A stretch of DNA of 31,772 nt, from positions 1 through 31,772 of IMG/VR virus record IMGVR_UViG_3300019890_000002; one strand, given 5' to 3'. The notes below the pieces were generated by a model. It ran no database searches. It was not told the DNA's origin and saw only the letters and a program-made list of their open reading frames with translations. The stretch comes from a virus. Below are positions 7,064 through 28,285 of the stretch, piece after piece. The position numbers and the translations under genes were made by a program. The first letter of the stretch is position 1, and each line of letters starts with the position of its first letter.

Positions 7064-7273
7064 ATGTACTCCAGCGAGCAGACGCTGAGGATCAAGATCA
7101 TCGAGCGCGAGTTCCCCAGCCATCAGATCTGGGTCGTGAACCGGGTCGTCGGCGGTCCCGTCTGGTGCGCCCGGCCGTGGGGCTCAGAGGACGTATCGAA
7201 AGTCATCAACCAGGGCAGCGAGAACGAGCTAGTCGAGGCGCTGATCGAGATCGTGGACCACCAGCCCCTCTAG
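7064..7273 (+). CDS. Hypothetical protein (69 aa), divergent from the GntR gene
   Basis: ATG 7064 with GAGGG 7 nt upstream. The part of the track ORF upstream of it looks non-coding. Its stop overlaps the convergent tail gene stop (CTAG). Confidence 0.55.
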   Translation: MYSSEQTLRIKIIEREFPSHQIWVVNRVVGGPVWCARPWGSEDVSKVINQGSENELVEALIEIVDHQPL

Positions 7274-10800: not shown

Positions 10801-12385
10801 CTGGCAGCCCGGAATCACTGGCCAGCGACGGTGCGCCCGAGAACGTCATCGGGAAGCCGGTCGTCAGGCCCGAGCTGAGGCTGGTGGCCGCACTGCCATC
10901 CTCAGCGGGCCAGTAAGCCAGCGGCGGGGCAGCCAGCGTCTGGTAGTACCGGAACAGCGCGGACCGCAGGGCAGCGTTCTGGTTGAGCCGCCGCAGGATG
11001 CCGTTCGCAGTGATCTGGACAGTGATGTCCTGGCCGGTGTTATCCCAGGTGGGCGGCCACTCGGCGACCTCACCCCAGAACCGGTATGACAGCGGCGACG
11101 GGATAACCGCGGTGGGCGCGGACACTCGCAGCTGCGTGTTCCGGCCGATGAGCAGATAGTAGGGAGAAGCCGGGTTGCGTGGTGAGAACCGGCCGTCACG
11201 GTTGTTCAGCGTGAACGTGCACGTCGCCGGGTTGACTGTCGCGGATTCGTCAGGCCGTCCGCGCACGATCGTGATCGTCTGCCGCTGGTAGACGAAGTCA
11301 GTGATGTCAGTCCACGTGTCACCGACGAGTAGCTCGAACAGCAGAATCAGTGGCTGCGCCGGGAACGGGAATCCCTGGAAGATCCGGCCGGCCAGCACCG
11401 GTGTGCGGACGCCTGCTGAGCCGCTGATGACGAGCGACTGGGTACCGGTGCCCGACAGTGCCGCCTTGGGGAGCACCAGGTGACCGCCGGTCAGGGCCAG
11501 CCCGGTCCCGGATATCCCCATCTTCGGGAGCGCTGCCGACCCGGTGCTCGTATTGGGGGGAATCCAGCTGATCGCCAGCGACGAGCTGGATGCCACGCTG
11601 ATCGTGTAGGCGGTCCCCGCGACGACACTCTCGGTGCTGGTACTGGTGTGCCCGTCGAAGGATGCGGTCCCGCTGATCGTCCATGAGGCCGAGGTGATCC
11701 CGCTGGGCGCGGTCCACTGGTACGTGCCGCCGGTGGTGCTCGCTGAGATCGTGGCCGTGCTCGCCATCGTCCAGGTGATGACGACCTGACCGGCTTTGCC
11801 GGCGGCAGCGTTCGAGCCGGAGACGCCGCCAGCACCACCACCCGGGGCCGAGCCTGCGGTCTGGGCGTTGCCGCCAGCGGCGCCGCCGGTGACTGCGACA
11901 GCACCAGCCCCGCCGCTGGCTCCGGTGCTGCCCGCATTGCCAGCCGCAGCGGTCCCGCCCGAGCCACCGCCACCACCGCCGGTAGTGCCGTTCCCGTTGC
12001 CGCCAGCCCCCCCGTTGTGGTGCGTGGTGTTGGTGCTGCCAGTCCCGCCAGCGCCACCAGTCTGGGAGCCTGTCCCGTTTGCCGTGCCGCCGTGGGCGGT
12101 GACGGCCGGCGAACCGCCGGTGACAGTGGAGCTTGCACTGGTTCCGGTGGTCCCGGCAATTGAGGCGGCACCAACGACGACGGTGTAAGAGTTCCCGGCC
12201 GTGACCGCCAGGGCCGGCTCAGCGGCGTACTCACCACCACCGCCGCCGCCCAGGCCGGAACCTGCAGCTACCGAGGGAGCTCCGGAACCCCAGCACTCGA
12301 CTTGCGCAGCCGTCACCCCGGCCGGGCAGACCCAGGTGAACGTGCCGGCGGTGGTGAACTTCGCGGTGAACGTCGCGTTGGCCAT
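7856..12385 (-). CDS. Giant tail protein (1509 aa): Dit-like (siphovirus tail family) core with three glycine-rich modules
   Basis: Follows the tape measure with a 1-nt overlap. Core motifs are GDTWTDITDFVYQRQTITIVRGRPDE...FTLNNRDGRFSPRNP (N part) and LQDCEDADRGLIFETRDALGMAYRTRSSLY...FDIIVTGERMTVTG...FTVSRGVNGV (C part). Gly-rich modules begin TFTWVCPAGVT..VECWGSG, THTWIAPPDIT..VQAWGAGGGG and TFNAPADIDG..AYVWGAGGGG. Confidence 0.8.
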   Translation of the reverse strand: MANATFTAKFTTAGTFTWVCPAGVTAAQVECWGSGAPSVAAGSGLGGGGGGEYAAEPALAVTAGNSYTVVVGAASIAGTTGTSASSTVTGGSPAVTAHGGTANGTGSQTGGAGGTGSTNTTHHNGGAGGNGNGTTGGGGGGSGGTAAAGNAGSTGASGGAGAVAVTGGAAGGNAQTAGSAPGGGAGGVSGSNAAAGKAGQVVITWTMASTATISASTTGGTYQWTAPSGITSASWTISGTASFDGHTSTSTESVVAGTAYTISVASSSSLAISWIPPNTSTGSAALPKMGISGTGLALTGGHLVLPKAALSGTGTQSLVISGSAGVRTPVLAGRIFQGFPFPAQPLILLFELLVGDTWTDITDFVYQRQTITIVRGRPDESATVNPATCTFTLNNRDGRFSPRNPASPYYLLIGRNTQLRVSAPTAVIPSPLSYRFWGEVAEWPPTWDNTGQDITVQITANGILRRLNQNAALRSALFRYYQTLAAPPLAYWPAEDGSAATSLSSGLTTGFPMTFSGAPSLASDSGLPASSPFPSFNGATFTGATGIAGALPVAQTTVLSTTGTHTWIAPPDITSVLVQAWGAGGGGSGYNGNTGGAGGGGSEYASGSLAVTPGNSYSYTVGASSAGVSGGSSVMHGDSSTSITAHGGTAGSSDGATGGAGGTGSTAATHFDGGAGAAGSGGPGGGGSSNTTQQNLAYTSDATFNAPADIDGTVTAYVWGAGGGGGGGGSSSGGGGGGGGGFSQGSHSVSGGSNYPVKVGQGGAGGASGGEGTVGGQSYFNSSGTIQADGGQPGHAAGTTGSGGSGNTHSGGHGGSGTTGNKGGGGGGGASIDGGGGNGTDSAGGGAGGNGGSGNGTINGGGHGGDGGSSAQGARNGADGAPTGAGGGGAYTRQFGATPSGGGGGRGKVWLFWSETVTMDPPDAGIGGGGGSSGGSASAGNDGDVELGGAAVTGGGPGGGTLAGSSFMAAPSSTPGGGGGGYDSLGNAAAGAQGLITLSYAPAGSGSSTTAANVLRFVLHTPDGGDTDGGVVAQMETTGTIAYIQVIYNVANAGSLTLSGFSGAGAQLFTTGEVAFGCDNQYLLVSAELTPSGSNIAYTLTGIFAGQTVAAATSSGTLTAATLGDAFVVIMDPNGDMASATWAHAAIQESGYDPVTSLAGPLAAYAGETASQRFTRICTEQNIPFSVIDAGVTDTTALVGPQLPVKVPQILQDCEDADRGLIFETRDALGMAYRTRSSLYAQAAAMQLDYGAGELGFPLQPTDDDQLLRNDVTISRPSGSSAEFQVTSGTLSIQDPPAGVGPYTFSQSINVDSDEQLEDLASWITFIGTVDQLRYPVVYVDLARAEIGTDFADVVNADIGDYLQVVNTGDAPLPPGDIRQLVYGYTEELNAYTWTLSMNCVPESPYEIAQAGDCRADTDGSQLHSGIGNGDISFAVDTPVPNQPWVDSTGYSGEFPFDIIVTGERMTVTGIDGASSPQTFTVSRGVNGVQKPHNAGESVNLYQPAITAL

Positions 12386-14829
12386 CAGTTCCGCCCGAAT
12401 GCCTGCTGGACGTTGCCCCCGCCCTGGACCCGGGCGAACTTCCGGATGGTGGTCAGCATGAACTGCTCGAAGGCGCTCTGGCCGGAGGAGTCGAAGCTGA
12501 CCGTGACGTTCGTGCCGGCGCCGGTGCTCATCATCCGCTCGGTGTCAGGATTGGAGTGCACGGTCGAGCCGCCGGGCAGCCGGATCAGCTCTCGGCCATG
12601 CTCACCAACCATGGCCAGTCCGGTGCCGGTGCCGCCCGCGGCGTAACCACCGGGCTGCAGCATCACCGACGCGAGAGAACGTCCCCGGTAGCCGGGAGAG
12701 TTGACCGCGTAGTTCAGCCCGGCGAAGATGTTCGCCATCGGGTTGTAGATGCTGTTCGGCAGTGAATCTGAGCGGTACGCCTCGAACGTCGTCATGATCG
12801 TCTGCATAAGCCCGCGGGACGGGTCGCCGTGCTGGGCGTTGATGTCGGTGAGGTTGATCGCGTTCGGGTTACCGCCGCTCTCCTGCATCATGCGGTGCTC
12901 GACCGCACCCAGGTTGGAGCTGGACTGGCCCAGCATGGCCAGCGCCTTGAGGATGTCGGGAGCCCACTGGGTGACCCCAGCACCGAAGCTGCCCGTGTAC
13001 TTGCTGCCACTGCCACTGGCCGCCTTGCTGGCAGCCAGTTTCACCTGCGCCGCCTTGTTCGCATCGTGCGCCTTGTTCGCGGAGCGCTTGATGCCCTTCT
13101 CCAGGCCGAGCATCAGGTTGTCACCGATCTCCGCGAACACCGAGGACGGCGACAGGACACCCCAGATCTTCTTGACCACGTTGACGATCGTCTTGCCGAA
13201 GTTGGAGAACCAGCTCTCAATGTCGCCGCCGACCCGCTTGAACGCGTTCCACATCTCGTTCAGCGCGGCGGACGCGAAGCTGCCCAGCGAGTGGCCGAGG
13301 CCGGTGAGGGCGCCGACCAGCTTGGACGGCATCCCCTTGAAGAAAGAGACGATGTTGCCCCAGACACTCTTCACGGTCGAGAACATCTGGTTCCAGGCGC
13401 TGCTCAGGAACGACTTCACCGAGTTAGCAGCCGAGGTGATCGCGGACTTGATGTTGTTCCACACGGACTTGATGAAGCTCAGGATGGAGTTCCAGGCGCT
13501 CTTCACTGCGTTAGTGATGGCGTTCCAGGCGCTGGACAGGGTGCTCTTCACCGAGTTGACGTCTGAGCTGACCGTCGACTTGATGTTGTTCCAGACGCTC
13601 TTGAAGAACGAGAGGACGGCATTCCAGGTGCTCTTCACCGTGTTGCTGATGGCGTTCCAGGCGGAGGAGAGCGTGTTCTTCATCGAGCTGACGTCCGAGC
13701 TGACGTCGGACTTAATGCTGTTCCAGATGGACTTGAAGAAGCCGAGTATGTCGTTCCAGATCTTCTTGATGGAGCTGTAGATGTCGTTGTGGTACTTCAT
13801 GATCACGCCGGACGGCCCGAGCAGGAGCGGCCACCACTGCTTGGCGAAGCTGAGGATGTTGTCCCAGGTCGTCTTGATGAAGTTGTAGACGTCACCCCAG
13901 ATCTTCTTGACCGTGTCCCAGATCTGGTTGTGGTACTTGATGATCAGGAGGGCCAGCACGACCAGGGCGGCAGCGACCGCGACGAACGGGTTGGCCAGCA
14001 TGGTGGCAAACGTCTCCGCCATGCCGAGCTTGAAGACCAGCAGTGCTCCAGTGGCGAGCCCCAGTGCGAGGGGCAGCAGGTGGAACTTCGAGAGCATGTC
14101 CACGATCACCAGGGAGACCTTCGCGCCGATCACGAGGATCGGGGTCAGCGCGGCGACCATCTGGACGAACGCGGGGGCCAGTTGCGCGAGGAGCTTGATC
14201 CCGGTCGGCCCCACGTCCATGAAGATCTGCATCAGGACCTTCAGGAGGCCCACCAGGGCCGGCCCGAGGATCTGGGATGCCTGGACTGCGAGCTTGGCCA
14301 TCATGTCCGCGAACTGCTTGAAGAACGGGCTGGCGACCAGTCCCAGCAGCGGCGCCAGGAACGCGGAGATGGAACTCGCGCCTGCCTTGGCGAGGATCTG
14401 GAGGGACGGCATCAGGCTCTGGAGGATGACCCCGCCGAACTTGACCAGGTACAGGATGGCCGGCTCGATGGCCTTGCTGGCCTGCTCGAAGCTGGTCTTA
14501 ATCCCCTCGATGGCCTTCGCGATACCCGTCTGGGTCGGGTCGAGCTGCGCCCATGCCTTCTTGCCGGCCGCGCCCGTGGAGGTGACCGCCTTCTCCACCT
14601 TGCTGAAGGTGGGCGCTGCCAGCGCACCGAAGGCGCCGACGGCAAGGGTGAGGCCGCCCAGCGGGGCGGCCATGGCGGTGAGGGAAGACCCGAGCGCGAT
14701 AATCCCGGCGCCCTGGCCGATGCCGGCCATCGACTTCTTCAGGTCTTCGCTGTTGGCCTTCGCCTCAGCGAAAGCTTGCTTTGTGTTGTCCTTCGCCTTG
14801 ACCAGGATTTCCACGACATTACTGGCCAT
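12385..14829 (-). CDS. Tape measure protein with C-terminal lytic transglycosylase (SLT) domain
   Basis: 814 aa. Long hydrophobic/helical centre and Trp/Phe-periodic 44-aa tandem repeats. SLT signature MMQESGGNPNAINLTD...GLMQTIMTTFEAYR...YNPMANIFAGLNY. Lies downstream of the G/GT chaperones. Confidence 0.9.
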   Translation of the reverse strand: MASNVVEILVKAKDNTKQAFAEAKANSEDLKKSMAGIGQGAGIIALGSSLTAMAAPLGGLTLAVGAFGALAAPTFSKVEKAVTSTGAAGKKAWAQLDPTQTGIAKAIEGIKTSFEQASKAIEPAILYLVKFGGVILQSLMPSLQILAKAGASSISAFLAPLLGLVASPFFKQFADMMAKLAVQASQILGPALVGLLKVLMQIFMDVGPTGIKLLAQLAPAFVQMVAALTPILVIGAKVSLVIVDMLSKFHLLPLALGLATGALLVFKLGMAETFATMLANPFVAVAAALVVLALLIIKYHNQIWDTVKKIWGDVYNFIKTTWDNILSFAKQWWPLLLGPSGVIMKYHNDIYSSIKKIWNDILGFFKSIWNSIKSDVSSDVSSMKNTLSSAWNAISNTVKSTWNAVLSFFKSVWNNIKSTVSSDVNSVKSTLSSAWNAITNAVKSAWNSILSFIKSVWNNIKSAITSAANSVKSFLSSAWNQMFSTVKSVWGNIVSFFKGMPSKLVGALTGLGHSLGSFASAALNEMWNAFKRVGGDIESWFSNFGKTIVNVVKKIWGVLSPSSVFAEIGDNLMLGLEKGIKRSANKAHDANKAAQVKLAASKAASGSGSKYTGSFGAGVTQWAPDILKALAMLGQSSSNLGAVEHRMMQESGGNPNAINLTDINAQHGDPSRGLMQTIMTTFEAYRSDSLPNSIYNPMANIFAGLNYAVNSPGYRGRSLASVMLQPGGYAAGGTGTGLAMVGEHGRELIRLPGGSTVHSNPDTERMMSTGAGTNVTVSFDSSGQSAFEQFMLTTIRKFARVQGGGNVQQAFGRN
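13333..13779 (-). repeat. In-frame tandem repeats (about 132 nt / 44 aa, roughly 3.5 copies) within the tape measure
   Basis: LSSAWNAI(S/T)N.VKS.WN..LSF.KSVWNNIKS...S..NSVKS. is repeated. Confidence 0.8.
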
Positions 14830-15369
14830 CCGGTGCTTCCCTCCTTCCCAGATCCACGATCCGCAGCAGCCGCAGGATCTCCGCGTCTTCTTCCATCAAC
14901 TGGCTGGGCAGGCAGTGAAACCGCTCACATAGCCCAATAATGGTTTGCGCTTCAGTCAGCTCACCAGGCTCGGCGACAAGCTCGCCATCGGCAGTGACGC
15001 CTCCGGGAAAGTCGCGCCATTGCTCGACGGCATGGGCAAAGGGGGCCTCACCGAGGCCATGGCTTCCATCCACGCAGTGATGATGGCCAGCACGAAGTCG
15101 AACTCCTGGCCCTGGATGCCGTCGTAGTCCGCTGGTACCGGGCGCCCTTTCTCGTCTTCCAGATTCCAGGACACCAGCGACTTGGCGAACTCCCGGAATA
15201 GCTGCTCAGCCTGCGCGGCCACGCCAGCCATATTTTCCGCACCCTCGGTGAGGCTGGACATCTTGAAAAACTCACCGAGGGGGAGCGAGCGGGCCAGCAC
15301 TTCGAGGCCCGCCAGGTCCGGGTCCTCGAACTTCAGCTTGTAGATTTTCCGTTCGCGCCGGAATCCCAT
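14819..15369 (-). CDS. Tail assembly chaperone GT fusion via -1 programmed frameshift
   Basis: The 84-aa ORF (14819-15073) is in the -1 frame relative to G. Slippery heptamers C_CCT_TTG (15043-15037) or T_TTC_CCG (15010-15004) lie in the overlap. Confidence 0.6.
14956..15369 (-). CDS. Tail assembly chaperone G
   Basis: ATG 15369 with GGAGGG 6 nt upstream. KLKFEDPDLAGLEVLARSLPLGEF is typical of actinophage tail chaperones. Position is immediately upstream of the tape measure. Confidence 0.7.
   Translation of the reverse strand: MGFRRERKIYKLKFEDPDLAGLEVLARSLPLGEFFKMSSLTEGAENMAGVAAQAEQLFREFAKSLVSWNLEDEKGRPVPADYDGIQGQEFDFVLAIITAWMEAMASVRPPLPMPSSNGATFPEASLPMASLSPSLVS
15037..15043 (-). promoter_or_regulatory. 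Candidate X_XXY_YYZ slippery heptamer CCCTTTG for the G/GT frameshift
   Basis: In the G frame the codons are CCT TTG. After a -1 slip they become CCC TTT. Confidence 0.45.
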
Positions 15370-16348: not shown

Positions 16349-17074
16349 TCAGAAATCCACCTTCACCGTGTTGCGGGCGAACATCACTGCGAATGTCGCC
16401 GAGGTGAAGGTGCCGGAGGTGACGACCTCGATGTAGCGGTCCACCGTCCCGGTCACCGCGACCCGCTGGGCACCCGCAGTGGTCGCCGCGGTGAAGGCGA
16501 TCAGGTCGGTGAACGTGCTGTTGTCCGTCGAGTGCCGCACCTTCACCGTCACCGAGGTCCCGGTGATCGCAGTCACCTGCAGGTAAGCCTGGGCACCGAA
16601 GGAAGTGCCGGCCGCCTCGTCTTTCGAGGTATGGGTCGTCGCCGTGGTGTCAGTGATCAGGCCGGCGGTGAGCAGCTCGCCCCACTCCAGGCCGTACGAG
16701 TTCGACTGGACTTCGATCTTGAAGGACAGCGAGCCGTCCGCACCGCGGGTCGGGTCATAGTTCAGCTGCTTGCCATTGATACTGAACGCCGGGTTGCCGA
16801 TGGCAGGTGAGGCGAAATAGCCGGACCCGATGACGTCCGTGGCAGGCAGGGTTTTCAGCACGGCGTGCTCCTGTCCCGTGCCGATGTTGAACCACGAGGT
16901 GAACTGCAGGTCACCGCTGCGCAGGCCGCCGATGCGCTCGGTGGCGAACGACTTGATGCCGGTCACGTCCAGTGGAGCCGGACCGCCGGAGATGGAGTCC
17001 AGGGAGCCGACGTCGCCGGACAGGTCGTGCCCGCTGATCAGGAACGTCGCACCGAGGCCGGACTGCTTACTCAT
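16349..17074 (-). CDS. Major tail (tube) protein candidate (241 aa)
   Basis: Position between the neck genes and the chaperones. Thr/Ser/Gly-rich beta-type sequence. Has a paralog at 15457-15879. Confidence 0.6.
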   Translation of the reverse strand: MSKQSGLGATFLISGHDLSGDVGSLDSISGGPAPLDVTGIKSFATERIGGLRSGDLQFTSWFNIGTGQEHAVLKTLPATDVIGSGYFASPAIGNPAFSINGKQLNYDPTRGADGSLSFKIEVQSNSYGLEWGELLTAGLITDTTATTHTSKDEAAGTSFGAQAYLQVTAITGTSVTVKVRHSTDNSTFTDLIAFTAATTAGAQRVAVTGTVDRYIEVVTSGTFTSATFAVMFARNTVKVDF

Positions 17075-17958: not shown

Positions 17959-19014
17959 TCACACGACCCGCACCCGGGACTTGCGCCCATAGCGGGCGCA
18001 GGCGCGGGCCTGAAGGTCAGCCAGGCCAGCGCCAGAAGCGTTACGCGTGGTATCGCCGGTGCCCACGGTGCGCGCGTAGCCGGAGGTCTTCTGCAGCACC
18101 GTGTTCTCGGCCAGGGCGACAGCCAGCTCGGTGATCAGCGGCGGGGGGACATGCCGGGAGACCGCAGCCGCTGAACTGTGCGGCGCCGCGGTGGTGCCCA
18201 GTGCGCCACGGGCGGCAGACAGCTGCCGGTTCGCATAGATCGTGCCCGAGGTGTGCGCGGTGAGGATCGTGCCTTCCCAGGCGCGCTTGACGACCAGGGC
18301 GCCGCCGGTCGTGTCGCTGATGTACATCCGTTCAGCGTCGAGGAGCAGCACCTCGCCGGGACTGAACACGGTGACGTCAGGGACCGCGACCAGGTTGTCG
18401 TTCGCCTGCGCGGTAGCGGGCCCGGTGAAGCTCACCCCGGTGCTGACCATGGCCCGGTCTGTGACGAGCAGCCGCTCAGAGCCGATGAGCAGGACGTCAC
18501 CCACGCCGGCCCGGGAGCCGTCTGTAACGGTGATCGTGGTGTCGTCGTCGGCCGCATCAGCGGACAGCGCACCAGCTGGGGCAGCCTGCGCGGTGTAGCC
18601 CCAGGTGCCGGTGATCGCCACGTCATGCTGGGGGGTGGGACCTGAACCGAACGCCGCGTTTGTGGAACGGTCCAGCTCCATGTAGACGTACGGCTCGTTA
18701 GCTTCCTTATCCACCGGCTCGAAGAAAATGTCGTCCAGCGGGATCGTCACGCCCCCGGTGGTGACCAGTGTCGCCACGATCAGGTCGTACTGCTCGAACC
18801 AGATACGCCACGGGTAGGCACCCTGGAAGTTGGGCCAGTCGAAATACTTGATGCCGTCTTCCGGATAGAACCGGCGGTGCAGGATGCCGTAGATGTCGTT
18901 CGCGGCGGCCTGGATGGCGTTGTCCACCAATGAGATCGAGCGCTGCGTGGGATGAAAATCCAGCGCCAGCATCACTTCATCCCGCGTGCAATAGCACGGC
19001 GAACTAACCGCCAT
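17959..19014 (-). CDS. Head-tail adaptor-like protein with a large insertion (351 aa)
   Basis: N-terminal YCTRDEVMLAL is typical of gp6-like connectors. Synteny also supports the call. Confidence 0.45.
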   Translation of the reverse strand: MAVSSPCYCTRDEVMLALDFHPTQRSISLVDNAIQAAANDIYGILHRRFYPEDGIKYFDWPNFQGAYPWRIWFEQYDLIVATLVTTGGVTIPLDDIFFEPVDKEANEPYVYMELDRSTNAAFGSGPTPQHDVAITGTWGYTAQAAPAGALSADAADDDTTITVTDGSRAGVGDVLLIGSERLLVTDRAMVSTGVSFTGPATAQANDNLVAVPDVTVFSPGEVLLLDAERMYISDTTGGALVVKRAWEGTILTAHTSGTIYANRQLSAARGALGTTAAPHSSAAAVSRHVPPPLITELAVALAENTVLQKTSGYARTVGTGDTTRNASGAGLADLQARACARYGRKSRVRVV

Positions 19015-19092
19015 CCTGGACCCTGCTTTCTTGCCCGAGAACCCGGCGATCTGAGCGAGCCACCGGGTGGGACTGGCTGCCTTCAGGATAGC

Positions 19093-19104
19093 TGGTCTAG
19101 ACCA
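19093..19104. promoter_or_regulatory. Perfect palindrome TGGTCTAGACCA (DasR/HutC-type GntR operator-like) in the 117-bp gap inside the late operon
   Basis: Sequence context is gcTGGTCTAGACCAtt. The palindrome is identical to the 12-bp core of the Streptomyces dre element. Confidence 0.45.
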
Positions 19105-19131
19105 TTGGTACTAGCGCTGACCTGCAGTGGT

Positions 19132-19434
19132 TCAGAGGGCGGCTGGTTCCACCTCCCAGGAGTCCACCCCGATGGCCTGCACAGTCCCGGTGCCGGTCCA
19201 TTCGACGATCCATAGCTGTCTCGCCGGGCCGGCCCAGCCGCTGGTGTCCAGATCAGCGTGATACGCGCCGGTGCCGTCTTTCACGATTGGCGAGTCGGGA
19301 TAGGTGACGGTGGTGGTGTCCCCCGCGTCGGCCTTGTACTGGAGCACCACCGAACTGGGGTCGGCGGGAGTCCCGCTGGTGTCGGTGTACGCAGCCGAGC
19401 TGCGGATCAGTGAACCGGACATGTATGTGTTCAT
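19132..19434 (-). CDS. Hypothetical protein (100 aa), Ig-like beta composition
   Basis: ATGA overlap with the upstream 885-aa gene. Confidence 0.6.
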   Translation of the reverse strand: MNTYMSGSLIRSSAAYTDTSGTPADPSSVVLQYKADAGDTTTVTYPDSPIVKDGTGAYHADLDTSGWAGPARQLWIVEWTGTGTVQAIGVDSWEVEPAAL

Positions 19435-22088
19435 AGCGCGCTCCCTACCAGTACGTGCTCGACGAGGGCTGAGGTGACGGTGACCTTCGCGGCGGTGTTG
19501 CTGACCTGCACTTGCCTGAGAAGAACGGACGTGACGGTCACTTCCGCGGCGGTGTTACTGAGCTGAACGGCGCTGGGCTGCGCGTGGGTGACGGTGACAG
19601 CCCCTGGGGTCTGTATCTCGGAGCCGCTCACTGTTATGGCGGGCAGCGCCAGGCTGCCCGCAGCGGTGACCGGCGCGATGACTGCGGCGGTGGCCGCCAG
19701 GGTGCTGTGCGGGAGGGTCAGGCTGCCGGCAGCCGTGCTTGTCTCAGTGGCCGTGCCAGCCAGGCCGGGGACGGCCACAGCCACTGAACCTGCGGCGGTG
19801 CTCGTCTCAGTAACGGTGACTGCCAGCGCGCTGTGCGGGAGGGCGACGGAGCCAGCGGAGGTGTTCTCCATGCTGGCCACGCCAGCCAGGCCCGCTGCGG
19901 AGAGCGCCGTCGAGCCGGCGGACGTGGACTCTTCAGCGGCTGCGCCAGAGAGACCCGCAGCGGGGAGCGCGAGGGAGCCAGCAGCCGTGGATTCTTCGGT
20001 GGCGCTCCCCGACATGGCCGTGGCAGGCACGGCCATCAAGCCTTCAATGCTCCCCGCCGGGGTTTCGGTGGCCGTGCCCAGCAGGCTGACCGCCGGCAGC
20101 GCCGCGCTGCCAGAGCTGGTGGACTCTTCAGTGGCGCTGCCGGCCAAGGTGCCTGCAGGCAGCGCGATGGAGCCAGAGCCGCCGGGGGTGGTAGCCGTTG
20201 CCGTGCCGGCCAGGGTGGTGACGGGGAGGGCCGCTGAACCGGCAGCCGTGGACTCTTCGCTGGCGTCCCCTGACAGGCCCGCAGCGGGCAGCGCCAGGGA
20301 ACCTGCGGACGTGGACTTCTCGGTGGCGGTCCCGGACATCACGGTCCGCGGGAGCGCGATGGAGCCGGCGCACGACGACGAGGACGCTGCCCCGGACAGC
20401 CCTCCTGCGTGCAGTGCGGCGCTGCCGGTGGATGTGGATGCCTCAGTAGCAGCGCCGGTGAGGGCACCTGCGCGGAGGGCGAGACCGCCTGAACATGACG
20501 AGGACGAGCCAGTCCCCGACGTGGCGGTCCGCGGGAGCGCCAGGCTCCCCGTGGCCTTGGTCGTCTCGGTGACGGTGACAGCGAGGCTGTAGCGCCGCGT
20601 AGCCGTAGATCCGGTGGATGTGGACTTTTCAACGGCGGCGGCGCTGATGCCGTAGCGCCGGACCGCGGCCGACCCGGTGGACGTGGTCGCCTCGGTGACG
20701 GTGCCCGCGATACCGGCCTTCGGGAGCGCCACGGAGCCGGTGGAGGTGTTAGACGTCGTCGCCAGCTTGATGACGGCGATACAGGCGGCACCGTTAGCGT
20801 CCGCAGAAGGAGTCCACGAGCAGGTGACGCCACCGCTGCTCGTGTTCATGCTGGCGACACCGACGTCCTGGAAACTGTTCCCGTCGATGGACGCGGCGGT
20901 GTTCTTGACGAACCCGGCACCCGCTACCGTCCATGTCGCTGATGCCCAGTCCGCGATCAGGCAGAGGGCCAGCTCGCCTGCCCCGGCGACAGCGGACGTG
21001 GTGCCCGCGCTGACGTTCTCGATGCCTTCCCCGGGTGGGGTGGCTGCGACGGACACGTCGAGGCAGCCGCTGCCCGCGGAGGCGTCCAGTCCGCTGTATT
21101 CAGCCGCGGTCCAGCCGTATTCCGAAGGACTTGGCGTCGCCCCGGCGACGGTGATCGTCAGCGTGCCGGTACTGGTAGCGACGGCGGTCCAGATGTCACC
21201 GTAAATGTTGTCGGCGACGATGCTATTACTGATCAATTTCGTATAGAGATTGCCCTGCGAGTCGGTCACCGAGCTGACGTCGCCACTGCCGAAGTTGCTG
21301 CCGGTGAAAACGAAGACCCTGTTCCCGCTGGTGACGCTCGACCCGAATGTGGCGGCTATGGTCGCCGTTGTGCTCGGGGTGGACTTCAGGGACTGCGCCA
21401 GCGCCCAGGCCGGCGTTACTGGCGGGGAGACCACGAGAATGAGCGCCGACTCGGTCGTGGACGTGCCGTGCGCCAGGGCAACGCTGAGCGTGCTGCCGGA
21501 CGAGGGTGCGGACGAGTCCCAGAACACGGCCATCTGGGACCGGGCCGAGGCGGTCTGGTTGGTGGTGCACGCGGTCCACCCGGACGGCGTGGTCCAGGTG
21601 ATCGTGGCAGCGGTGGTGCCGTGGCCGCAGACAATCCCGGCGAGCGCGAAGCAGCCGCCGGACGGCACGTTCATGGTGGTCGCGGGAGACAGGGTGCCGG
21701 TCGTGCCGGTTGCGGTGCCGTCCGTCGCGGCCACCGGGGTGCCACCGCCGCTGTCGGACAGCACGAACATGACACAGGCGATGGTGGCGTCCGCCGCGGT
21801 CCCAGTTTCAGTCCCGTTGAAGACGGGGGCGGTGTCAGTGCCCGCCGCGACCTTCGTGTAGTACGCGGTGACGTCCCGGCTGGAACCGGTGACCGACTGG
21901 ATCAGTGTCCACCCGGATGGGGCCGCACCGAGTACCCCCGTGGTCGTGCCGTACACCGTGACCACGCCGACGAGCAGGTTCCCCGCGGTGCGGGTCTGCC
22001 CGGTGCCCCACGTTGCAGTGACCGTCTGCGTCGTGGTGGTGAACGCCGCCGACGCGACAGCAGGCGTGCCGACCGAGGAGACGGTCAT
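19431..22088 (-). CDS. 885-aa repeat protein: two roughly 220-aa N-terminal domains plus about 18 tandem 21-aa Ser/Thr/Ala/Gly repeats
   Basis: Continuous GC3-rich ORF with RBS GGGAGGTGAG. Repeat unit is T-S-x-G-S-x-A-L-P-x-x-G-L-x-G-x-A-T-E-x-S. Confidence 0.8.
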   Translation of the reverse strand: MTVSSVGTPAVASAAFTTTTQTVTATWGTGQTRTAGNLLVGVVTVYGTTTGVLGAAPSGWTLIQSVTGSSRDVTAYYTKVAAGTDTAPVFNGTETGTAADATIACVMFVLSDSGGGTPVAATDGTATGTTGTLSPATTMNVPSGGCFALAGIVCGHGTTAATITWTTPSGWTACTTNQTASARSQMAVFWDSSAPSSGSTLSVALAHGTSTTESALILVVSPPVTPAWALAQSLKSTPSTTATIAATFGSSVTSGNRVFVFTGSNFGSGDVSSVTDSQGNLYTKLISNSIVADNIYGDIWTAVATSTGTLTITVAGATPSPSEYGWTAAEYSGLDASAGSGCLDVSVAATPPGEGIENVSAGTTSAVAGAGELALCLIADWASATWTVAGAGFVKNTAASIDGNSFQDVGVASMNTSSGGVTCSWTPSADANGAACIAVIKLATTSNTSTGSVALPKAGIAGTVTEATTSTGSAAVRRYGISAAAVEKSTSTGSTATRRYSLAVTVTETTKATGSLALPRTATSGTGSSSSCSGGLALRAGALTGAATEASTSTGSAALHAGGLSGAASSSSCAGSIALPRTVMSGTATEKSTSAGSLALPAAGLSGDASEESTAAGSAALPVTTLAGTATATTPGGSGSIALPAGTLAGSATEESTSSGSAALPAVSLLGTATETPAGSIEGLMAVPATAMSGSATEESTAAGSLALPAAGLSGAAAEESTSAGSTALSAAGLAGVASMENTSAGSVALPHSALAVTVTETSTAAGSVAVAVPGLAGTATETSTAAGSLTLPHSTLAATAAVIAPVTAAGSLALPAITVSGSEIQTPGAVTVTHAQPSAVQLSNTAAEVTVTSVLLRQVQVSNTAAKVTVTSALVEHVLVGSAL
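19614..20750 (-). repeat. About 18 in-frame tandem repeats of roughly 63 nt (21 aa)
   Basis: GS.ALP units begin at aa 451, 472, 493, 514, 534, 555, 575, 596, 617, 639, 660, 679, 704, 725, 746, 767, 788 and 811 of the 885-aa protein. Confidence 0.85.
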
Positions 22089-22526: not shown

Positions 22527-22532
22527 GGCTGC

Positions 22533-22736
22533 TCACATCCCTGCCTGAGTATCTGGGTCATAGTCGCGGGGATACTGCCAGCCGTCGAAACGGCAGTAGA
22601 GAATCCCTGGTGCTTGCGGTGGCCCCCACTGCAACGGCTCACCGTCATTCGGGCACGCCACCGGGGGCTGCGCCCGGTAGTACTCGATGTACGCAGCCCG
22701 CTCTTTAAGCGTGGTGTCCAGTGCCCACCAGGACAT
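22533..22736 (-). CDS. Hypothetical protein (67 aa)
   Basis: GC3-rich ORF, 1 nt from the upstream stop codon. Confidence 0.55.
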   Translation of the reverse strand: MSWWALDTTLKERAAYIEYYRAQPPVACPNDGEPLQWGPPQAPGILYCRFDGWQYPRDYDPDTQAGM

Positions 22737-22737
22737 G

Positions 22738-23100
22738 TCAGCCCGCCTTGTCCCGGTTCGCGTACGCGTCGAGAACCAGCTGGGGGAGCTTGCCCCGGGC
22801 CGCTACCTCAAGGCCCTGGTCCGCGGCCCAGGCGCGGACCGCAGCAGTAGGCGAGTCGTCCTCAGGCTGCTCCGCCTCCGGCGCAGGAAGGCTGACGCCG
22901 CCGCTGGCCGTCACCCCGGAATCCTCAGCTTCCGGCGCGTCCTGCGCTGCCCAGCGGTTGCTGGTACCACCGCTCGTGGCCTTCGGCATTTCACGCTCCT
23001 TTCCGCACATTGGGCACCGGGTCAGGGCAGAAGCGATGGCCAGGCAGCCGCAGCTGTCACAGGTCCACATCTGATACCCCCACGACGATTGCCATGTCAC
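22738..23100 (-). CDS. Zinc-ribbon / Lsr2-type DNA-binding-domain fusion protein (120 aa)
   Basis: N-terminus CDSCGC...CPMCG, an acidic linker, then C-terminus AAVRAWAADQGLEVAARGKLPQLVLDAYANR. This matches the Lsr2 C-domain pattern (IREWA...G..VS.RGRIP..V..AY). GTGA overlap with the GT gene. Confidence 0.65.
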   Translation of the reverse strand: MTWQSSWGYQMWTCDSCGCLAIASALTRCPMCGKEREMPKATSGGTSNRWAAQDAPEAEDSGVTASGGVSLPAPEAEQPEDDSPTAAVRAWAADQGLEVAARGKLPQLVLDAYANRDKAG

Positions 23101-23786
23101 AAGGTCACCACCTTCGCGTGACCCACCCTCACTTCACTGGCGACATGAATTGGAACGCCGGCCCGCGCCGCCTTACGGCAGAACGACAGGTCCTCGCCAT
23201 ACGAGATCCCGTCGTCCGTTTCCTCACTGAACGGGGCCGGCCCGACCGCCTCGAACGCCGAGCGGTGGATGAGCACGCACCCGGTGCCCACTGCCGCGAC
23301 TTTCTGCACCGGGTCCATGGGCGTCTTCACGCTCCACGGGATCAGCTGCCCGAAATGGTCGGTGTAAGCCGCCCAGTGCAGCGAGGGCCATTCCCCCACC
23401 GGGTGCATACCGGGGTCGTGGGCCACCACGGGGACGGCGGCAGCGAGGATGGGGCGCCTCGCCGGGTCGGCGAGGCGCAGCAGTGCAGGCAGCGTCTCCG
23501 GGCCGAACACGGTGTCGCTGTCGGTGAACCACAGCCATTCCTGCTGGCTGGCCATGAGTGCCGAGGCTGCCGCGTTCCTGGTTACTGACAGGTTCGGCCC
23601 GGACGGCTGGTCGAGGAACGACCCCAGCAGTGCGGCGTTGTCGCTGGTGAGCATGGCGATCACCGACGACATGAACGCAGCCCGCACGTCCTCACCGTGC
23701 AGCCACGCCCAGAAGACGGTACCTGAGCGCAGCGAAGCCTCCCTGGCCGCCGCAGCGGACGGGGAGACTTCGGCCACGATTGTCAT
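23097..23786 (-). CDS. GT-A fold (family 2-like) glycosyltransferase
   Basis: DxD motif in LWFTDSDTVF. Also GTGCVLIHRSAFE and YGEDLSFCRKAARAGVPIHV...VGH. Confidence 0.75.
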   Translation of the reverse strand: MTIVAEVSPSAAAAREASLRSGTVFWAWLHGEDVRAAFMSSVIAMLTSDNAALLGSFLDQPSGPNLSVTRNAAASALMASQQEWLWFTDSDTVFGPETLPALLRLADPARRPILAAAVPVVAHDPGMHPVGEWPSLHWAAYTDHFGQLIPWSVKTPMDPVQKVAAVGTGCVLIHRSAFEAVGPAPFSEETDDGISYGEDLSFCRKAARAGVPIHVASEVRVGHAKVVTL

Positions 23787-24324: not shown

Positions 24325-25740
24325 TCAGGAACCGACCGCCAGGCCGACGAACGCCGACAGGGTGCTGGTCGAGCCGTTGTGCGGGGTGAGGGCGCTCTGC
24401 AGCCAGGGCCGGCCGTCGACGCGCTCGATGATCCGGTATGCGGTCTGGTCGTTCTGGAACGCGTAGTGCTCCGAGGCCGAGATGGCCATGGCCTGCCGGT
24501 CACCGATCAGGTAGTAGGACAGGTCCACGAAGGAGATGTCACCGACGGTGCCCAGCTTCGGCACCTTCTCGGTGAAGATCACCGGGCGGCCCATGATGTT
24601 CACCGGAGGTGCATCCGAGGCGTCCCGGGCAGCCCAGCCACCCAGCCAGATGCCGGGGTTGGTCTGGCTCATCAGGGCCAGCTGCGGGAACGTGTCGATG
24701 GATGCGATCCATACGGCGGTGGACAAACTCTGCGGCAGCATCCGGGCATACATGCCGACGATGTCAGCCCAGGCGATCAGGTTGGCACCGGCGCGGGCGG
24801 CCTGCACGTAGGACGGGTTCTGGGCACCGATGCAGCCCATCGGGGTGCCAGCGCCGGTCTCGGTCAGGAACGCGACATCCTCAGACCAGGCGAGGCCGGC
24901 GGGGACCCGGGTGTCGAACCAGCCCGAGAAGGCCGGTGCGTCGGCGAGCAGCTCGTTCGGGACCTTGAAGAAGCCGGTCAGCTTCTTCGCGTCCAGCACC
25001 ACCCGGCCGAAGCTGGCCTGCGACTCGGTGAGACTCGAAGACTCCTCGGCCCAGTAGTACTCGACGCCGCCGAACAGGCTGGACACGTGGCTGGTGTCGT
25101 CCACGGTGGGGATCGGCACCCGCAGCGTGCTCATCGGGATAACCGTCGCGCGGGACCGGACGATGGACTCTTCCAGGGCCAGCTGCAGAAGCTCGGACCG
25201 CATGATCTCGGGGACCAGGAAGCCACCGGCGCCCGGGTCCTCAGACCCGAAGCTGTTCTGGAAGGACCGGACGTTCTCCAGCTTCTGGAGCAGCGTCTTG
25301 CGGCCCGGGTTCGAGGTCGGCCGGGCTTCCTCACGGATCGCCTGGCAGTACTCGCCGATGGAACCGAACCGGTCCTCAGCCTTGAACGTGGCCTCGAAGC
25401 CCGCACCAGGCGAGTACTTGTTGTATACGGCGCCCTTCCCGCGGCTGATCACCGGGGTGCCGTCCGCGCTGAGCCCTGGCTTGCCGTTCACCAGGCCGGC
25501 ACGGTTCAGCGGATGGCCGCCACCCAGGCCGTTTTCCCTGACGAACTCGGCCATGCCGAGCTGCAGCTGCTCGCTGATCTGCTGCTTGAGGCTGCCGTCC
25601 TTCTCCATGGTGACAACCGCGTACTTGCTCAGGAACTCCTTGCGTGTGTCCGGGTCGGACATCACGTTCTTGAGCACCTGCGGGGTGTTCAGCATCTCCT
25701 CCAGCTCAGCCGAGCCGGTCGGAATGACGATCTTGGTCAT
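24325..25740 (-). CDS. Major capsid protein, HK97 fold, with N-terminal delta/scaffold-like domain
   Basis: 471 aa directly after the protease. GGFLVPEIMRSELLQLALEESIVRSRATVIPM...ISFVDLSYYLIGDRQ is typical of HK97-family capsids. Confidence 0.9.
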   Translation of the reverse strand: MTKIVIPTGSAELEEMLNTPQVLKNVMSDPDTRKEFLSKYAVVTMEKDGSLKQQISEQLQLGMAEFVRENGLGGGHPLNRAGLVNGKPGLSADGTPVISRGKGAVYNKYSPGAGFEATFKAEDRFGSIGEYCQAIREEARPTSNPGRKTLLQKLENVRSFQNSFGSEDPGAGGFLVPEIMRSELLQLALEESIVRSRATVIPMSTLRVPIPTVDDTSHVSSLFGGVEYYWAEESSSLTESQASFGRVVLDAKKLTGFFKVPNELLADAPAFSGWFDTRVPAGLAWSEDVAFLTETGAGTPMGCIGAQNPSYVQAARAGANLIAWADIVGMYARMLPQSLSTAVWIASIDTFPQLALMSQTNPGIWLGGWAARDASDAPPVNIMGRPVIFTEKVPKLGTVGDISFVDLSYYLIGDRQAMAISASEHYAFQNDQTAYRIIERVDGRPWLQSALTPHNGSTSTLSAFVGLAVGS

Positions 25741-26894
25741 TACTTGCTCCCTTCCGGAAGGTCGAGCCGGAACAGTTCCGGGACGGCGAGTTCCGCCCAG
25801 ATGTCTTCGTCGGACTGGCTTGAAGGCGAGGCCATCGAGCCGTCACCGCCCCAGTTGTCCGGGATGCGTGACGACAGGCCGAGGGCCTTAGCGCGTTTGG
25901 TGATGTGGCGCCGGATCGCGTCATGACCTGAGCCGCCCCGGCCTACCGCATGGATCGCGTTGTCCAGATCCTCGGCGTCAGCGATGGGGTAGGAGCCGTC
26001 CTCCATCGCCTGGCCGTTCTTGGCCATGCGGTCGCGGTCGTCCTGGTTGTACTTCGCGTTGCGGGGCAGCTGGCCGTACTGGCCGGTCTGGTCTGGCTTA
26101 GCCTTGGGCTTCGGCGGGATGGGCTTGATCTGCTTGCCGTCCGCATCCCAGTAGTCGTGGTCCTTGTCGCCTTCAGGCGTGCTGTCGTCGTCGCCGTCGC
26201 CGTCCGGGTCGAACCGCACCTTGCCGTCGGGGTCCTGCACCCAGCCGTCACCGAGCTGCTTCGGCTGCCCGCCGGGGCCGTTGTACACCGACAGGTCCCA
26301 GGCGCTGCCAGGGGCTTCCTCGCCGAGAATCTTGTCCGCCAGGCCGGCGTCGACGGCTTCGCGGTCGCTGTACCAGGTTTCGGTGCGCATCGCGGTGCGC
26401 CACGTCTCCGCCGGCTGGCCAGTGCGGTCCGAGTAGATGGACGCGATGTTGTCGCTGGCCTTGTCGAGCAGGCCGGCCATCTCCCGCATGTCCGCGGCGT
26501 TGCCGATGGCCATCCCGAAGCCGTCGTGGATCATCAGCTGGGAGTGCGGCGCCATGGCCAGCTCACCCGGGGACGCGGCCTGGCAGATGAACGACGCAGC
26601 CGAGGCGGCCAGGCCGTCCACCACGATGGATACGGTGCCAGGGTGCTGCCGGAGGGCGTTGTAGATGGCGATGCCGTCGAAGACATCGCCGCCAGGGCTG
26701 TTCACGTGCAGCTCGATGTCACCGGGGAGACCACCCAGCTCGTTCACGAAGTCCTGGGCGGACACTCCGAACATGCCGATCTCGTCGTAGACGGAGACCC
26801 GGGCGGGCCCGGTGGCGTTCCGCACGACCTTGTACCAGCCGGCTCGCTGCAGGTTGGACAGCCGGCGCGTGGTCCGCAGCGGGCGCTTGTCCAT
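25740..26894 (-). CDS. ClpP-type (S14) prohead protease with a roughly 190-aa acidic/Pro-Lys C-terminal extension
   Basis: SVYDEIGMFGVSAQDF...ELHVNSPGGDVFDGIAIYNAL...VDGLAASAASFI. The C-terminal part carries GSYPIADAEDLDNAIHAVGRGG...ITKRAKALGL. Confidence 0.9.
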   Translation of the reverse strand: MDKRPLRTTRRLSNLQRAGWYKVVRNATGPARVSVYDEIGMFGVSAQDFVNELGGLPGDIELHVNSPGGDVFDGIAIYNALRQHPGTVSIVVDGLAASAASFICQAASPGELAMAPHSQLMIHDGFGMAIGNAADMREMAGLLDKASDNIASIYSDRTGQPAETWRTAMRTETWYSDREAVDAGLADKILGEEAPGSAWDLSVYNGPGGQPKQLGDGWVQDPDGKVRFDPDGDGDDDSTPEGDKDHDYWDADGKQIKPIPPKPKAKPDQTGQYGQLPRNAKYNQDDRDRMAKNGQAMEDGSYPIADAEDLDNAIHAVGRGGSGHDAIRRHITKRAKALGLSSRIPDNWGGDGSMASPSSQSDEDIWAELAVPELFRLDLPEGSK

Positions 26895-28285
26895 CAGAAC
26901 CTCCCGGCCAGCTCGACTGGCTGGTGACCGTTTGAAAGGACCTTGCGGACCCGTGCAGCCATCTGCTCCGGCTGGTCGGCCGACTCGCCCGGCTGTGGCG
27001 GGCCAGCTGGTGCTGCGGGGGCGCCGGGAACCCAGCCGGGCGGCAGGGCGGGCAGCTGGGTGGCCTTCTCGGCGATGCCCATGTCCGGCAGGCCGACCGT
27101 TTCGAGAACGTCATGCGGGTCATAGCCAGCGGAGACCAGGAGCTGCACCGCGGTGGACTTGTTCTTCAGCTCCATCGCGTCCTGCTCCCGGTTCGTCGGC
27201 ACCGGGGTGACGTAATCGAATTCCACGCCCTCACCGGCGGAGCCGAACATGGGCAGGAAGACGTTGTTGAGCATGTCCTTCTTGCGGTCGAGGCGCGGGA
27301 CCACGCCCCAGCTGGAGAAAACTTCCTCGCCGGTTTGCGCATTAGCGCGGTTAACGTCATCGGACACACCAAGCATCACTTTGTGCATCCGGTACGCCTC
27401 ACGGACAATGTCGCGGGTCAGGTTCCGCAGGTTAGCGAAGTCCATGTCGGTGACCGACATCTGGTTCGGCTGCCAGGTGGCGCCGTTCTCCAGGATTGCC
27501 ACCCGGTGAGCGCGGGCCACACCCCGGTGCGCTTCACGCCAGCGGTTCGAGAAGTTCTCGTATTCGGTGTCGTCCCATGAGTCGGGGACGGTGATGATGC
27601 CGTCCGGGCGCGCGGAGTTGATGAAGAAGTTCCGGTTCCAGTTGGCGCTGTACTTCGAGGCGTCAACGTCCACGAGGACGGACTGGACGGGGCCCAGCCC
27701 GTGCATCGGGTCCAGCGGGTTCGGGTAGACGACCTGAATGACCTCATCAGGCGCCAGGGGGATCTTCTCCAGCCCATCAGGACTGGTGTAAATCCAGCCC
27801 TTGATGTAGTTCTCCGGGTCCGGTACCGGTTCCATCCGGTCGGGGCGCACCGGCCAGATACTGGTCGGGAAGTTCACGCCACCGTCGCGGCCCAGGACCC
27901 AGTAGGACTCGCCGGTCAGGTCCAGGTACATCTGGTCGGCCTCGAACAGCCGGGTCCGCGTGTAGAAGTCGTTCGGCTTGTTGACCAGCGACAGCGCGGC
28001 ATGCTGGACCACTTCGGTGCGCTGGTCCACCGGGTTGTCGTTCGTGGTGTAGCGGACCCGTGCATCCTTCGGCTGCTTGCGGAACAGGTGCCACTCGACC
28101 CGGGAGCAGGATTCGGCGTACAGGGAAACGCAGGAGTAGACGGTGCCCATCACGCTGTAGGCGTGCATGAGGTTTTCGGAGCCCGCGACGCTGGACGTGA
28201 GATAGCTGAGGCTGTGGAACTGGGACGCCGCCATCGGCACCGGAGGGTTCCCGGCATTGCGCAGCCGCCGCAGTGCGCTTTTCAC
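26894..28285 (-). CDS. Portal protein, HK97 family
   Basis: 463 aa, GTG start, 1-nt overlap with the protease gene. Typical portal length and synteny (ESYWVL, FANLRNLTRDIVREAYRMHKVMLG). Confidence 0.88.
   Translation of the reverse strand: MKSALRRLRNAGNPPVPMAASQFHSLSYLTSSVAGSENLMHAYSVMGTVYSCVSLYAESCSRVEWHLFRKQPKDARVRYTTNDNPVDQRTEVVQHAALSLVNKPNDFYTRTRLFEADQMYLDLTGESYWVLGRDGGVNFPTSIWPVRPDRMEPVPDPENYIKGWIYTSPDGLEKIPLAPDEVIQVVYPNPLDPMHGLGPVQSVLVDVDASKYSANWNRNFFINSARPDGIITVPDSWDDTEYENFSNRWREAHRGVARAHRVAILENGATWQPNQMSVTDMDFANLRNLTRDIVREAYRMHKVMLGVSDDVNRANAQTGEEVFSSWGVVPRLDRKKDMLNNVFLPMFGSAGEGVEFDYVTPVPTNREQDAMELKNKSTAVQLLVSAGYDPHDVLETVGLPDMGIAEKATQLPALPPGWVPGAPAAPAGPPQPGESADQPEQMAARVRKVLSNGHQPVELAGRF

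Follow-up and report, generated by a model that had tools for sequence, protein, structure and literature searches.

DasR is an actinomycete regulator that senses N-acetylglucosamine (GlcNAc), the sugar of cell wall and chitin, and in streptomycetes it is the master link of nutrient status, development, and antibiotic production. Operators for host factors are also known in phages, among them the LexA boxes of CTXphi, GIL01, and coliphage 186 and the stx1 Fur box, which lies inside a late operon, and the start-associated sequences of Cluster K mycobacteriophages are conserved phage 5′ leaders. The DasR-responsive element (dre) has the consensus A(G/C)TGGTCTAGACCA(G/C)T, and most gene-upstream dre sites lie at about −32 to −335 from the start, many of them paired 15–22 bp apart (PMC4398421, Table 1). 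The short direct repeats of chitinase promoters have since turned out to be dre sites (PMC6097792). In NagR (YvoA), Arg38 contacts G-5, Arg48 contacts G-4, and Gly69 contacts the minor groove, and dre DNA is bound in vitro by the NagR DNA-binding domain on its own (PMC4333415); the DasR counterparts of NagR Arg38, Arg48, and Arg52 are Arg48, Arg58, and Arg62 (PMC13191281). The dre motif and DasR are already known, as are host-factor operators in phages; dre sites in phage genomes were not reported in any paper that our literature search returned, and as far as that search reaches, the placement of a dre-like site in a phage that we describe here is new.

The DNA analyzed here (the window) is the 31,772-nt genome of a temperate, siphovirus-type phage, complete and circular, with a GC content of about 66% and with positions 31673–31772 at its end duplicating bases 1–100 exactly. 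The minus strand holds most of the window genes, including those for the portal (26894–28285), a ClpP-type protease (25740–26894), an HK97-type capsid (24325–25740), the major tail protein (16349–17074), the tape measure (12385–14829), a 1509-aa glycine-rich tail protein (7856–12385), an 88-aa mini-GntR that comprises a winged helix-turn-helix only (6695–6961), a serine integrase (4799–6268), an AAA_25 replication protein (2139–3323), and an HNH endonuclease (1043–1585). A preliminary description had assigned the late genes to a single operon on one strand, a picture to be corrected for the large terminase (28772–30460) and a 69-aa ORF (7064–7273), both on the plus strand, and for the accessory genes that sit between the capsid and neck genes. 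Its statement that the gap at 19015–19131 is the only sizeable one was nearly right: other gaps are found at 14830–14955, at 22527–22737, and after the capsid gene, where the gap is 83 nt long. The first of these is overlapped by an ORF at 14819–15073, which we infer to be a tail-chaperone frameshift product, and the second contains a 67-aa ORF.

No DNA-level relatives of the window were found in the INPHARED phage collection, and single-protein scans of viral and genome contigs returned no matches. Relatives were obtained by profile-based scans, from which we collected about 190 loci around homologs of the 351-aa gene that follows the gap. The relatives of this gene are prophages of Streptomyces, Kitasatospora, Nonomuraea, Actinomadura, Thermoactinospora, and Catenulispora, and the cultured relative is Streptomyces phage Dagobah, which infects S. 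coelicolor. Because the hosts of these relatives are all actinomycetes, we take the window phage to have an actinomycete host as well; the presence of DasR in that host is assumed.

The gap extends from the stop codon of a 100-aa ORF to the ATG of the 351-aa ORF, both on the minus strand, and contains a 16-bp candidate operator of dre type at 19091–19106. Its core, TGGTCTAGACCA (19093–19104), reads AATGGTCTAGACCAGC on the minus (coding) strand and is present in the window as a single exact copy. The resemblance to dre that had been noted earlier is confirmed, with an exact 12-bp core and 14/16 positions in agreement with A(G/C)TGGTCTAGACCA(G/C)T, and an estimate from base composition again gave about 0.001 expected copies of the exact 12-mer. 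For the matrix scan that had been proposed, we derived a symmetric dre matrix from 40 distinct, experimentally supported S. coelicolor sites (Table 1 of PMC4398421). On this S. coelicolor matrix, the window site scores 21.8 bits and thereby exceeds the upper quartile of the real dre sites as scored by leave-one-out (minimum 13.6, median 19.1, upper quartile 20.9, maximum 22.3 bits). The runner-up match in the window scores 10.8 bits, and the best matches in 200 first-order Markov random genomes have a median of 11.4 and a maximum of 18.6 bits, such that 0/200 reach 21.8. The guanines characteristic of dre, GG at −5/−4, are intact in both half-sites. The site, which is intergenic, begins 90 nt before the ATG at 19014 and would be promoter-proximal.

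The same core recurs 75–90 nt upstream of the same 351-aa-type gene in three further phage lineages, with 47–66% identity between the encoded proteins. In the lineage of L030, L032, L110-113, L201, and L205, which has an adaptor identity of 66%, the exact 12-mer lies within AATGGTCTAGACCAGG and scores 21.4 bits. The lineage of L079, L080, L133, L196, and L197, with an adaptor identity of 47%, carries the tandem sites ATTGGTCTATACCTTT (21.5 bits) and TTTGGTCTAGACCTGT (23.6 bits) at a spacing of 13 bp; the pair, listed as TTGGTCTATACCTT and TGGTCTAGACCT (21.5 and 23.6 bits), belongs to this lineage and to L204, which is arranged likewise. All five phage sites score above the dre median, with a match that reaches into the flanking positions, and GG is retained in 10/10 of their half-sites. 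The invariant block of the four-way alignment is TGGTCTAGACC, and its flanks have diverged. The alignment also places a degenerate CTAGTACCAA of the window (19105–19114, minus strand) where the tandem lineages have GGTCTATACC, and this stretch is possibly the remnant of a second, upstream site.

Across 1.23 Mb of related high-GC loci, all matches of at least 20 bits are found at this position, and just two other matches reach 15 bits. Since the palindrome recurs at the same place and is specific to that place over 1.23 Mb, chance can be ruled out, and we argue for a protein-binding site under selection. Scanning viral contigs for the pattern TGGTCTAGACCNG...TATNCT returned mostly low-GC matches that we judged to be due to chance, with L204 as the sole new one. 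The recurrence in four lineages, the drifting flanks, and the matrix score all support the earlier suggestion that the palindrome may behave as a functional operator of the HutC/DasR type.

The phage sites share several properties with the dre sites of the Streptomyces nag, pts, and chitinase promoters: a 16-bp palindromic consensus, with a window score that exceeds the upper quartile for real dre sites, an intergenic location 75–90 nt upstream of a start codon, and, in two of the phage lineages, tandem copies like those at chi, nagE2, and ptsH. They differ in that the phage copy precedes virion neck and tail genes that are unrelated to GlcNAc or chitin metabolism, and in that binding of DasR is a prediction. 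The 13-bp spacing of the phage tandem sites is tighter than the 15–22 bp found in S. coelicolor, and the site is carried by four of more than 100 related lineages; both observations count against DasR as the binder.

The gene directly upstream of the gap (19132–19434, minus strand) encodes the 100-aa protein, a homolog of which is found at the same place in all palindrome lineages; it is 55% identical to the L197 homolog, and its C-terminal peptide is kept in L030 and L079. The large upstream genes (885, 822, and 299 aa) are mutually unrelated across lineages, placing the site at a mosaic boundary. Neither the 885-aa nor the 100-aa upstream protein of the window has a match in Pfam, PHROG, PADLOC, or PDB.

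Read along the minus strand, the gap consists of the stop codon of the 100-aa gene, CTGCAGGTCAG, CTAGTACCAA, the dre-like palindrome, TATCCT, AGCCAGTCCCACC, a hairpin, TTCTCGGGCA, AGAAAGCAGG, and the ATG. TATCCT (19085–19090, minus strand) resembles a −10 element (TANNNT) and is situated 2 nt downstream of the palindrome and 6 nt ahead of AGCCAGTCCCACC. A hexamer of the form TAT(C/G)CT follows the palindrome by 2–5 nt in 4/4 lineages, the other three having TATGCT at 3–5 nt, and the conserved leader described below begins 6–8 nt after it. The actinobacterial −10 pattern is TANNNT, with which TAT(C/G)CT agrees, and the arrangement therefore suggests a putative internal promoter at TATCCT. Counting against such a promoter, the −35 region is not conserved among the four palindrome lineages, and no terminator was detected upstream of the site in the window, which weakens the case that a separate promoter is needed. 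A scan of 18500–19700 with the σ70 consensus of E. coli type returned no promoter.

Most of the gap is filled by a conserved and structured 5′ leader, which is missing from the preliminary description. The proximal 55–60 nt of the gap belong to this leader and are not spacer. Its 5′ edge is formed by AGCCAGTCCCACC (19066–19078, minus strand), which is kept with or without the palindrome and near which a transcript from TATCCT would begin. In the minimum-free-energy fold, AGCCAGTCCCACC is followed by a hairpin, P1, in which ACCCGG and CCGGGT enclose a 16-nt loop (19041–19068, minus strand). The adjoining TTCTCGGGCAAGAAAGCAGGG (19021–19041, minus strand) is near-invariant in relatives, and its TTCT is able to pair with AGAA in AGAAAGCAGG, an extended Shine-Dalgarno sequence that is separated from the ATG by 7 nt and that we take to be complementary to the 3′ end of 16S rRNA.

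The leader is shared by about 35 distinct relatives, including Dagobah (L216, 5851–5988; 9092–9229 of MT711977), which has no dre. Its parts in these relatives are an ACAAC box, a AGCCAGTCCCACC-like flank, the hairpin, and the extended Shine-Dalgarno sequence AGAAAGCAAGG; the box, ACAAC(T/C)(G/T)(A/C)A(T/G)A, lies 44–92 nt from the start codon. The pairing, whose distance to the Shine-Dalgarno sequence is fixed, is preserved in more than 20 stems that differ in sequence, such as ACGCC/GGCGT, ACACC/GGTGT, ACCCT/AGGGT, ACCGC/GCGGT, ACCAT/ATGGT, TACGCCC/GGGCGTA, GTCACC/GGTGAC, and AAATCTTGTA/TACAAGATTT, and GNRA or UNCG tetraloops are frequent in the loops. Because MAFFT left the stems out of register, no covariance model was built and stems were counted by script: 31/34 leaders have a stem of at least 5 bp whose end lies 2–10 nt before the Shine-Dalgarno sequence, compared to 12.9±2.8 in shuffles. 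Support for the hairpin is comparative only, the single-sequence folding z-score of the leader being an unremarkable −0.56. We also considered the hairpin as an intrinsic terminator and rejected this, as a terminator scan was negative and what comes after the stems, mostly of 5–7 bp, is TTCTC, TACGG, or another sequence. Rfam searches were negative as well, both across the entire window with the gathering threshold and within 18900–19250 with a cutoff of E≤1.

Like the leaders of Cluster K mycobacteriophages, the window leader is a conserved non-coding block with a ribosome-binding site directly upstream of a structural gene and is found in many relatives. It differs from them by its compensated hairpin, by the ACAAC(T/C)GAATA box that lies upstream in relatives, and by its association with one specific gene. 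As far as we searched, the leader is an undescribed element, and it possibly acts at the RNA level. In the four palindrome lineages, dre and TATNCT replace the ACAAC box before the same leader, and most of the remaining leader-bearing lineages have ACAAC(T/C)GAATA in the place of dre. Several of the box lineages carry a strong terminator-like hairpin directly upstream of the ACAAC box. The exchange of box and dre, together with these terminator-like hairpins, suggests that a separate transcription unit begins with the adaptor gene and that the dre and ACAAC modules may be two alternative ways of starting it.

The gene served by the leader (17959–19014, minus strand) encodes a 351-aa protein that resembles head-tail adaptors and has a large beta-rich insertion; more than 1000 homologs were found. 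Its AlphaFold2 model (pLDDT 89, pTM 0.84) has N- and C-terminal helices that flank the insertion. Foldseek matched parts of this model to the head-to-tail interface of Mycofy1 (9lw9_C, probability 0.94) and to the neck of DT57C, with 8hqo_P also among the head-to-tail interface and neck matches. Based on these partial structural matches of a predicted model, and on the position of the gene, which precedes the neck and major tail genes, we read the protein as a head-tail adaptor that contains an inserted domain and not as a high-copy component.

From the quality of the site, its recurrence, and the adjoining hexamer, we infer a binder, a promoter, a direction of control, and a biological rationale. 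In the proposed mechanism, a dimer of host DasR would occupy the palindrome when GlcNAc-6-P and GlcN-6-P are low and would occlude the internal TATCCT promoter, from which a transcript would start near AGCCAGTCCC (about 19070–19078). This internal transcript would span the adaptor, neck, and tail genes and have the leader, with its hairpin and Shine-Dalgarno sequence, at its 5′ end. Alternatively, with no promoter firing, bound DasR could be a roadblock for RNA polymerase that reads through from upstream. A rise in GlcN-6-P or GlcNAc-6-P would remove DasR from the site and allow transcription of the adaptor, neck, and tail genes, and transcription of the neck and tail module would thereby be tied to the GlcNAc status of the host.

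We consider it an even call whether the palindrome is a functional HutC/DasR-type operator that is bound by host DasR, be it to control an internal promoter or to form a roadblock. The operator core is constant among phages whose structural proteins are 47–66% identical, and this constancy would point more to a conserved host factor than to a rapidly evolving repressor of the phage. The broader scheme, in which temperate actinophages use host DasR as a sensor that gates an internal neck and tail promoter, with a dre module interchangeable with the ACAAC(T/C)GAATA module, is put forward tentatively, as a possibility that we would not yet call probable.

Such an arrangement would resemble the LexA and Fur operators of other phages in that the canonical operator of a global regulator ties the phage programme to a host signal, and it would resemble the stx1 Fur case in having an internal promoter within the late region. 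Those operators respond to DNA damage or iron and mostly control lysogeny or accessory genes, whereas here a sugar and cell-wall regulator would act on core morphogenesis genes. If the proposal is correct, these would be, to our knowledge, the first phage late structural genes under DasR, and sugar and cell-wall sensing would join SOS and iron among the host signals that phages read via borrowed operators. Virion completion would then depend on a metabolic or cell-wall cue of the host, beyond the phage's own cascade, and GlcNAc from peptidoglycan or chitin could signal lysis of neighboring hyphae or a shift from feast to famine.

Another candidate binder, already named in the preliminary description, is the phage's own mini-GntR, which could silence the neck and tail module in the lysogen or time its expression. 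The earlier account of an 88-aa GntR without effector domain was accurate: residues 18–81 match PF00392 (E = 4.7e-14), and the protein stops 7 residues past the winged helix-turn-helix. A C-terminal UTRA (chorismate-lyase-like) effector and oligomerization domain defines the HutC subfamily and is lacking here, and 28/28 members of the mini-GntR family are 77–101 aa long. By sequence, the mini-GntR shares the fold of the NagR and DasR DNA-binding domains; its closest solved relative is that of NagR/YvoA (E = 1.9e-10; best PDB matches 4u0y and 4u0v), and Arg55 of helix 3 (equivalent to NagR Arg48) and Gly76 (equivalent to the wing Gly69) are retained and invariant in the family. Further in favor of this binder, the NagR DNA-binding domain alone binds dre DNA (PMC4333415), and family genes adjoin integrases and have a divergent partner gene of about 68 aa (69 aa in the window), an arrangement like that of a lysogeny switch. 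Yet Val45 and Ala59 stand in place of NagR Arg38 and Arg52, leaving one of the three DNA-reading arginines, and the position of Val45 is variable in the family, while the GG of the phage half-sites is invariant. The mini-GntR genes are instead preceded by a different element, the direct repeat A(C/T)ACAYGGAC, in the window and in L190, L191, L192, L214, and L215; two of the window copies are at 6994 and 7013 and the third is in the early region (31637), a distribution that would be expected of a phage repressor's own operators. The window's only other GT-N-TA-N-AC match, GTCTACAC upstream of the mini-GntR gene (7020, plus strand), was considered as an autoregulatory HutC-type site and rejected: its score is −5.3 bits, and neither of the closest relatives (L214 and L215) has it. 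Among the related loci scanned, those with a mini-GntR have no phage-borne dre of at least 15 bits. Scanning the viral collection with the family's conserved peptides returned one unrelated 4-kb contig and neither the 22.7-kb nor the 19.7-kb contig with tandem sites, the former of which extends 22 kb downstream of the site; for IMGVR_UViG_3300012209_000384, the 14-kb locus covered reaches the tape-measure gene and stops short of the expected GntR region. With two arginines missing, a different repeat at its own gene, and the family undetected in the tandem-site contig, the link between palindrome and mini-GntR is disfavored and appears unlikely, and host DasR would be the better candidate.

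The likeness to dre could also be incidental, the palindrome serving some other binder (a host HutC paralog or a phage ribbon-helix-helix or helix-turn-helix protein), a hairpin, or recombination at a module boundary. In favor of this group are its position at a mosaic boundary with unrelated large genes upstream and the phage-specific CTGCAGGTCAG 12 nt away; a hairpin is suggested by the tandem sites of L079 and L204, which could pair over 9/10 bp with a UUU loop, and by strong hairpins at about the same place in several palindrome-free relatives. The core is nevertheless kept as sequence, with compensatory changes absent, and the palindromes of the window and L030 can form a stem of at most 4 bp. 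A recombination boundary would leave the invariant GG-N4-CC palindrome unexplained, and the extension of the dre match to flanking positions and the above-median scores of all five sites argue against an incidental likeness to DasR operators, so that we regard this group of explanations as distinctly improbable. A functionless palindrome that arose by chance might be entertained from the window alone, which holds 12 perfect palindromes of at least 12 bp, making length in itself not unusual, and in which the 12-mer at up to two mismatches is not enriched (2 found versus 0.86 expected). The rarity of the exact copy, the random-genome scores, the independent finds at the same position in three further lineages, and the confinement of high-scoring matches to this position effectively refute that explanation, to which we attach almost no weight.

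The gap also contains a dispersed motif of the phage, CTGACCTGCAG (19117–19127, plus strand), whose minus-strand form is the CTGCAGGTCAG noted above and which is 4 nt away from the stop codon of the preceding 100-aa gene. The motif is absent from 213 related loci and thus private to the window phage. Its occurrence beside the palindrome was correctly noted at the outset, and the distance is 12 nt. Exact copies are found at 149, 210, 2550, and 19117, all on one strand, and at up to one mismatch there are 9 matches compared to 1.18 expected, a number that 0/100 shuffles reach.

Comparison of related loci showed that approximately 35 distinct phage lineages share a structured 5' leader upstream of the adaptor-like gene. 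It occupies 19015–19078 of the window, recurs in relatives L001–L006, L084, L120, L163, L177, and others, and is found at 5851–5988 of Streptomyces phage Dagobah (L216). The leader consists of an ACAAC(T/C)GAATA box, a AGCCAGTCCCACC flank, a hairpin in which pairing is retained through compensatory changes and whose loops are often GNRA or UNCG, and an extended Shine-Dalgarno sequence (AGAAAGCAAGG), the AGAA of which is able to pair with TTCTC in the leader. A comparison of the leader with Rfam returned no family match. In the lineage whose adaptor protein is 66% identical to that of the window, the conserved leader and an ATG begin a 16-codon upstream ORF (MTVSASVPRFSGRVPV; 3453–3503 in L111), which is also present in L030, L032, L110, L112, and L113 and is identical in sequence across contigs (n = 6 samples). 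Because the stop codon of this ORF and the adaptor start overlap as ATGA, the arrangement suggests that translation of the upstream ORF is coupled to that of the adaptor gene.

Upstream of the neighboring 100-aa gene lies a large gene (19431–22088, minus strand, in the window; 633–3101 in L079; 2139–3038 in L111) whose products (885, 822, and 299 aa, respectively) show no relatedness between the lineages that carry a site resembling the DasR-responsive element (dre) upstream of the adaptor gene. Ala, Gly, Ser, and Thr are abundant in the protein, which contains repeats such as GS(I/V)ALP; in the window version, the first 88 aa are similar to a region that follows the tape-measure gene in the related locus L197. 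This gene product may be a variable fiber or appendage protein.

The dispersed motif CTGACCTGCAG occurs in four exact copies in the window, versus approximately 0.02 expected, all on the plus strand and oriented alike with respect to transcription. Two copies lie in the early control region (149–159 and 210–220), one lies within a replication gene (2550–2560), where it adjoins a tandem GGTGAGACTC repeat (2515 and 2525), and one lies in the gap preceding the adaptor-like gene (19117–19127). The motif was not found in 213 related loci. A regulator particular to the window phage may use it as an operator or as a stoperator-like site.

The mini-GntR gene and a 69-aa ORF (7064–7273, plus strand) form a divergent pair; the ORF is homologous (E = 7e-10) to the 68-aa protein whose gene accompanies mini-GntR in other integrase-linked elements. 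Their shared intergenic region (6962–7063) contains A(C/T)ACAYGGAC direct repeats at 6994 and 7013, with a third copy at 31637 (region 31630–31644), close to where the early operon begins. Taken together, the gene pairing, the homology of the partner, and the repeats resemble a lysogeny switch equipped with operators of its own. Within the 426-nt gap separating mini-GntR from the serine integrase is a 14-bp perfect palindrome, TATACCCGGGTATA (6437–6450), a possible attP core or operator. A mini-GntR gene also sits beside host genes on the actinomycete contig L191, a chromosomal intergenic region of which contains a dre-like site (GGTGGTCTAGACCCTT, 6525–6540) scoring 15.6 bits on a matrix built from 40 S. 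coelicolor dre sites.

The large terminase gene (28772–30460, plus strand; phrog_9, E = 1.6e-71) is encoded on the opposite strand from the portal and every other structural gene, which reflects either a true inversion or an artifact of assembly. Genes for an Lsr2-like nucleoid-associated protein (22738–23100) and a glycosyltransferase-like protein (23097–23786), both on the minus strand, lie between the capsid and neck genes, so accessory genes are present in the head-to-neck region. The two contig ends (1–100 and 31673–31772) share an identical stretch of exactly 100 nt, which identifies the contig as a circular assembly with a genome size of approximately 31.67 kb. Between an HNH gene and the early region, a 32%-GC island (280–420) in this 66%-GC genome contains the short repeats GATATG and TTTAGG; it could serve as an origin, cos site, or regulatory region.
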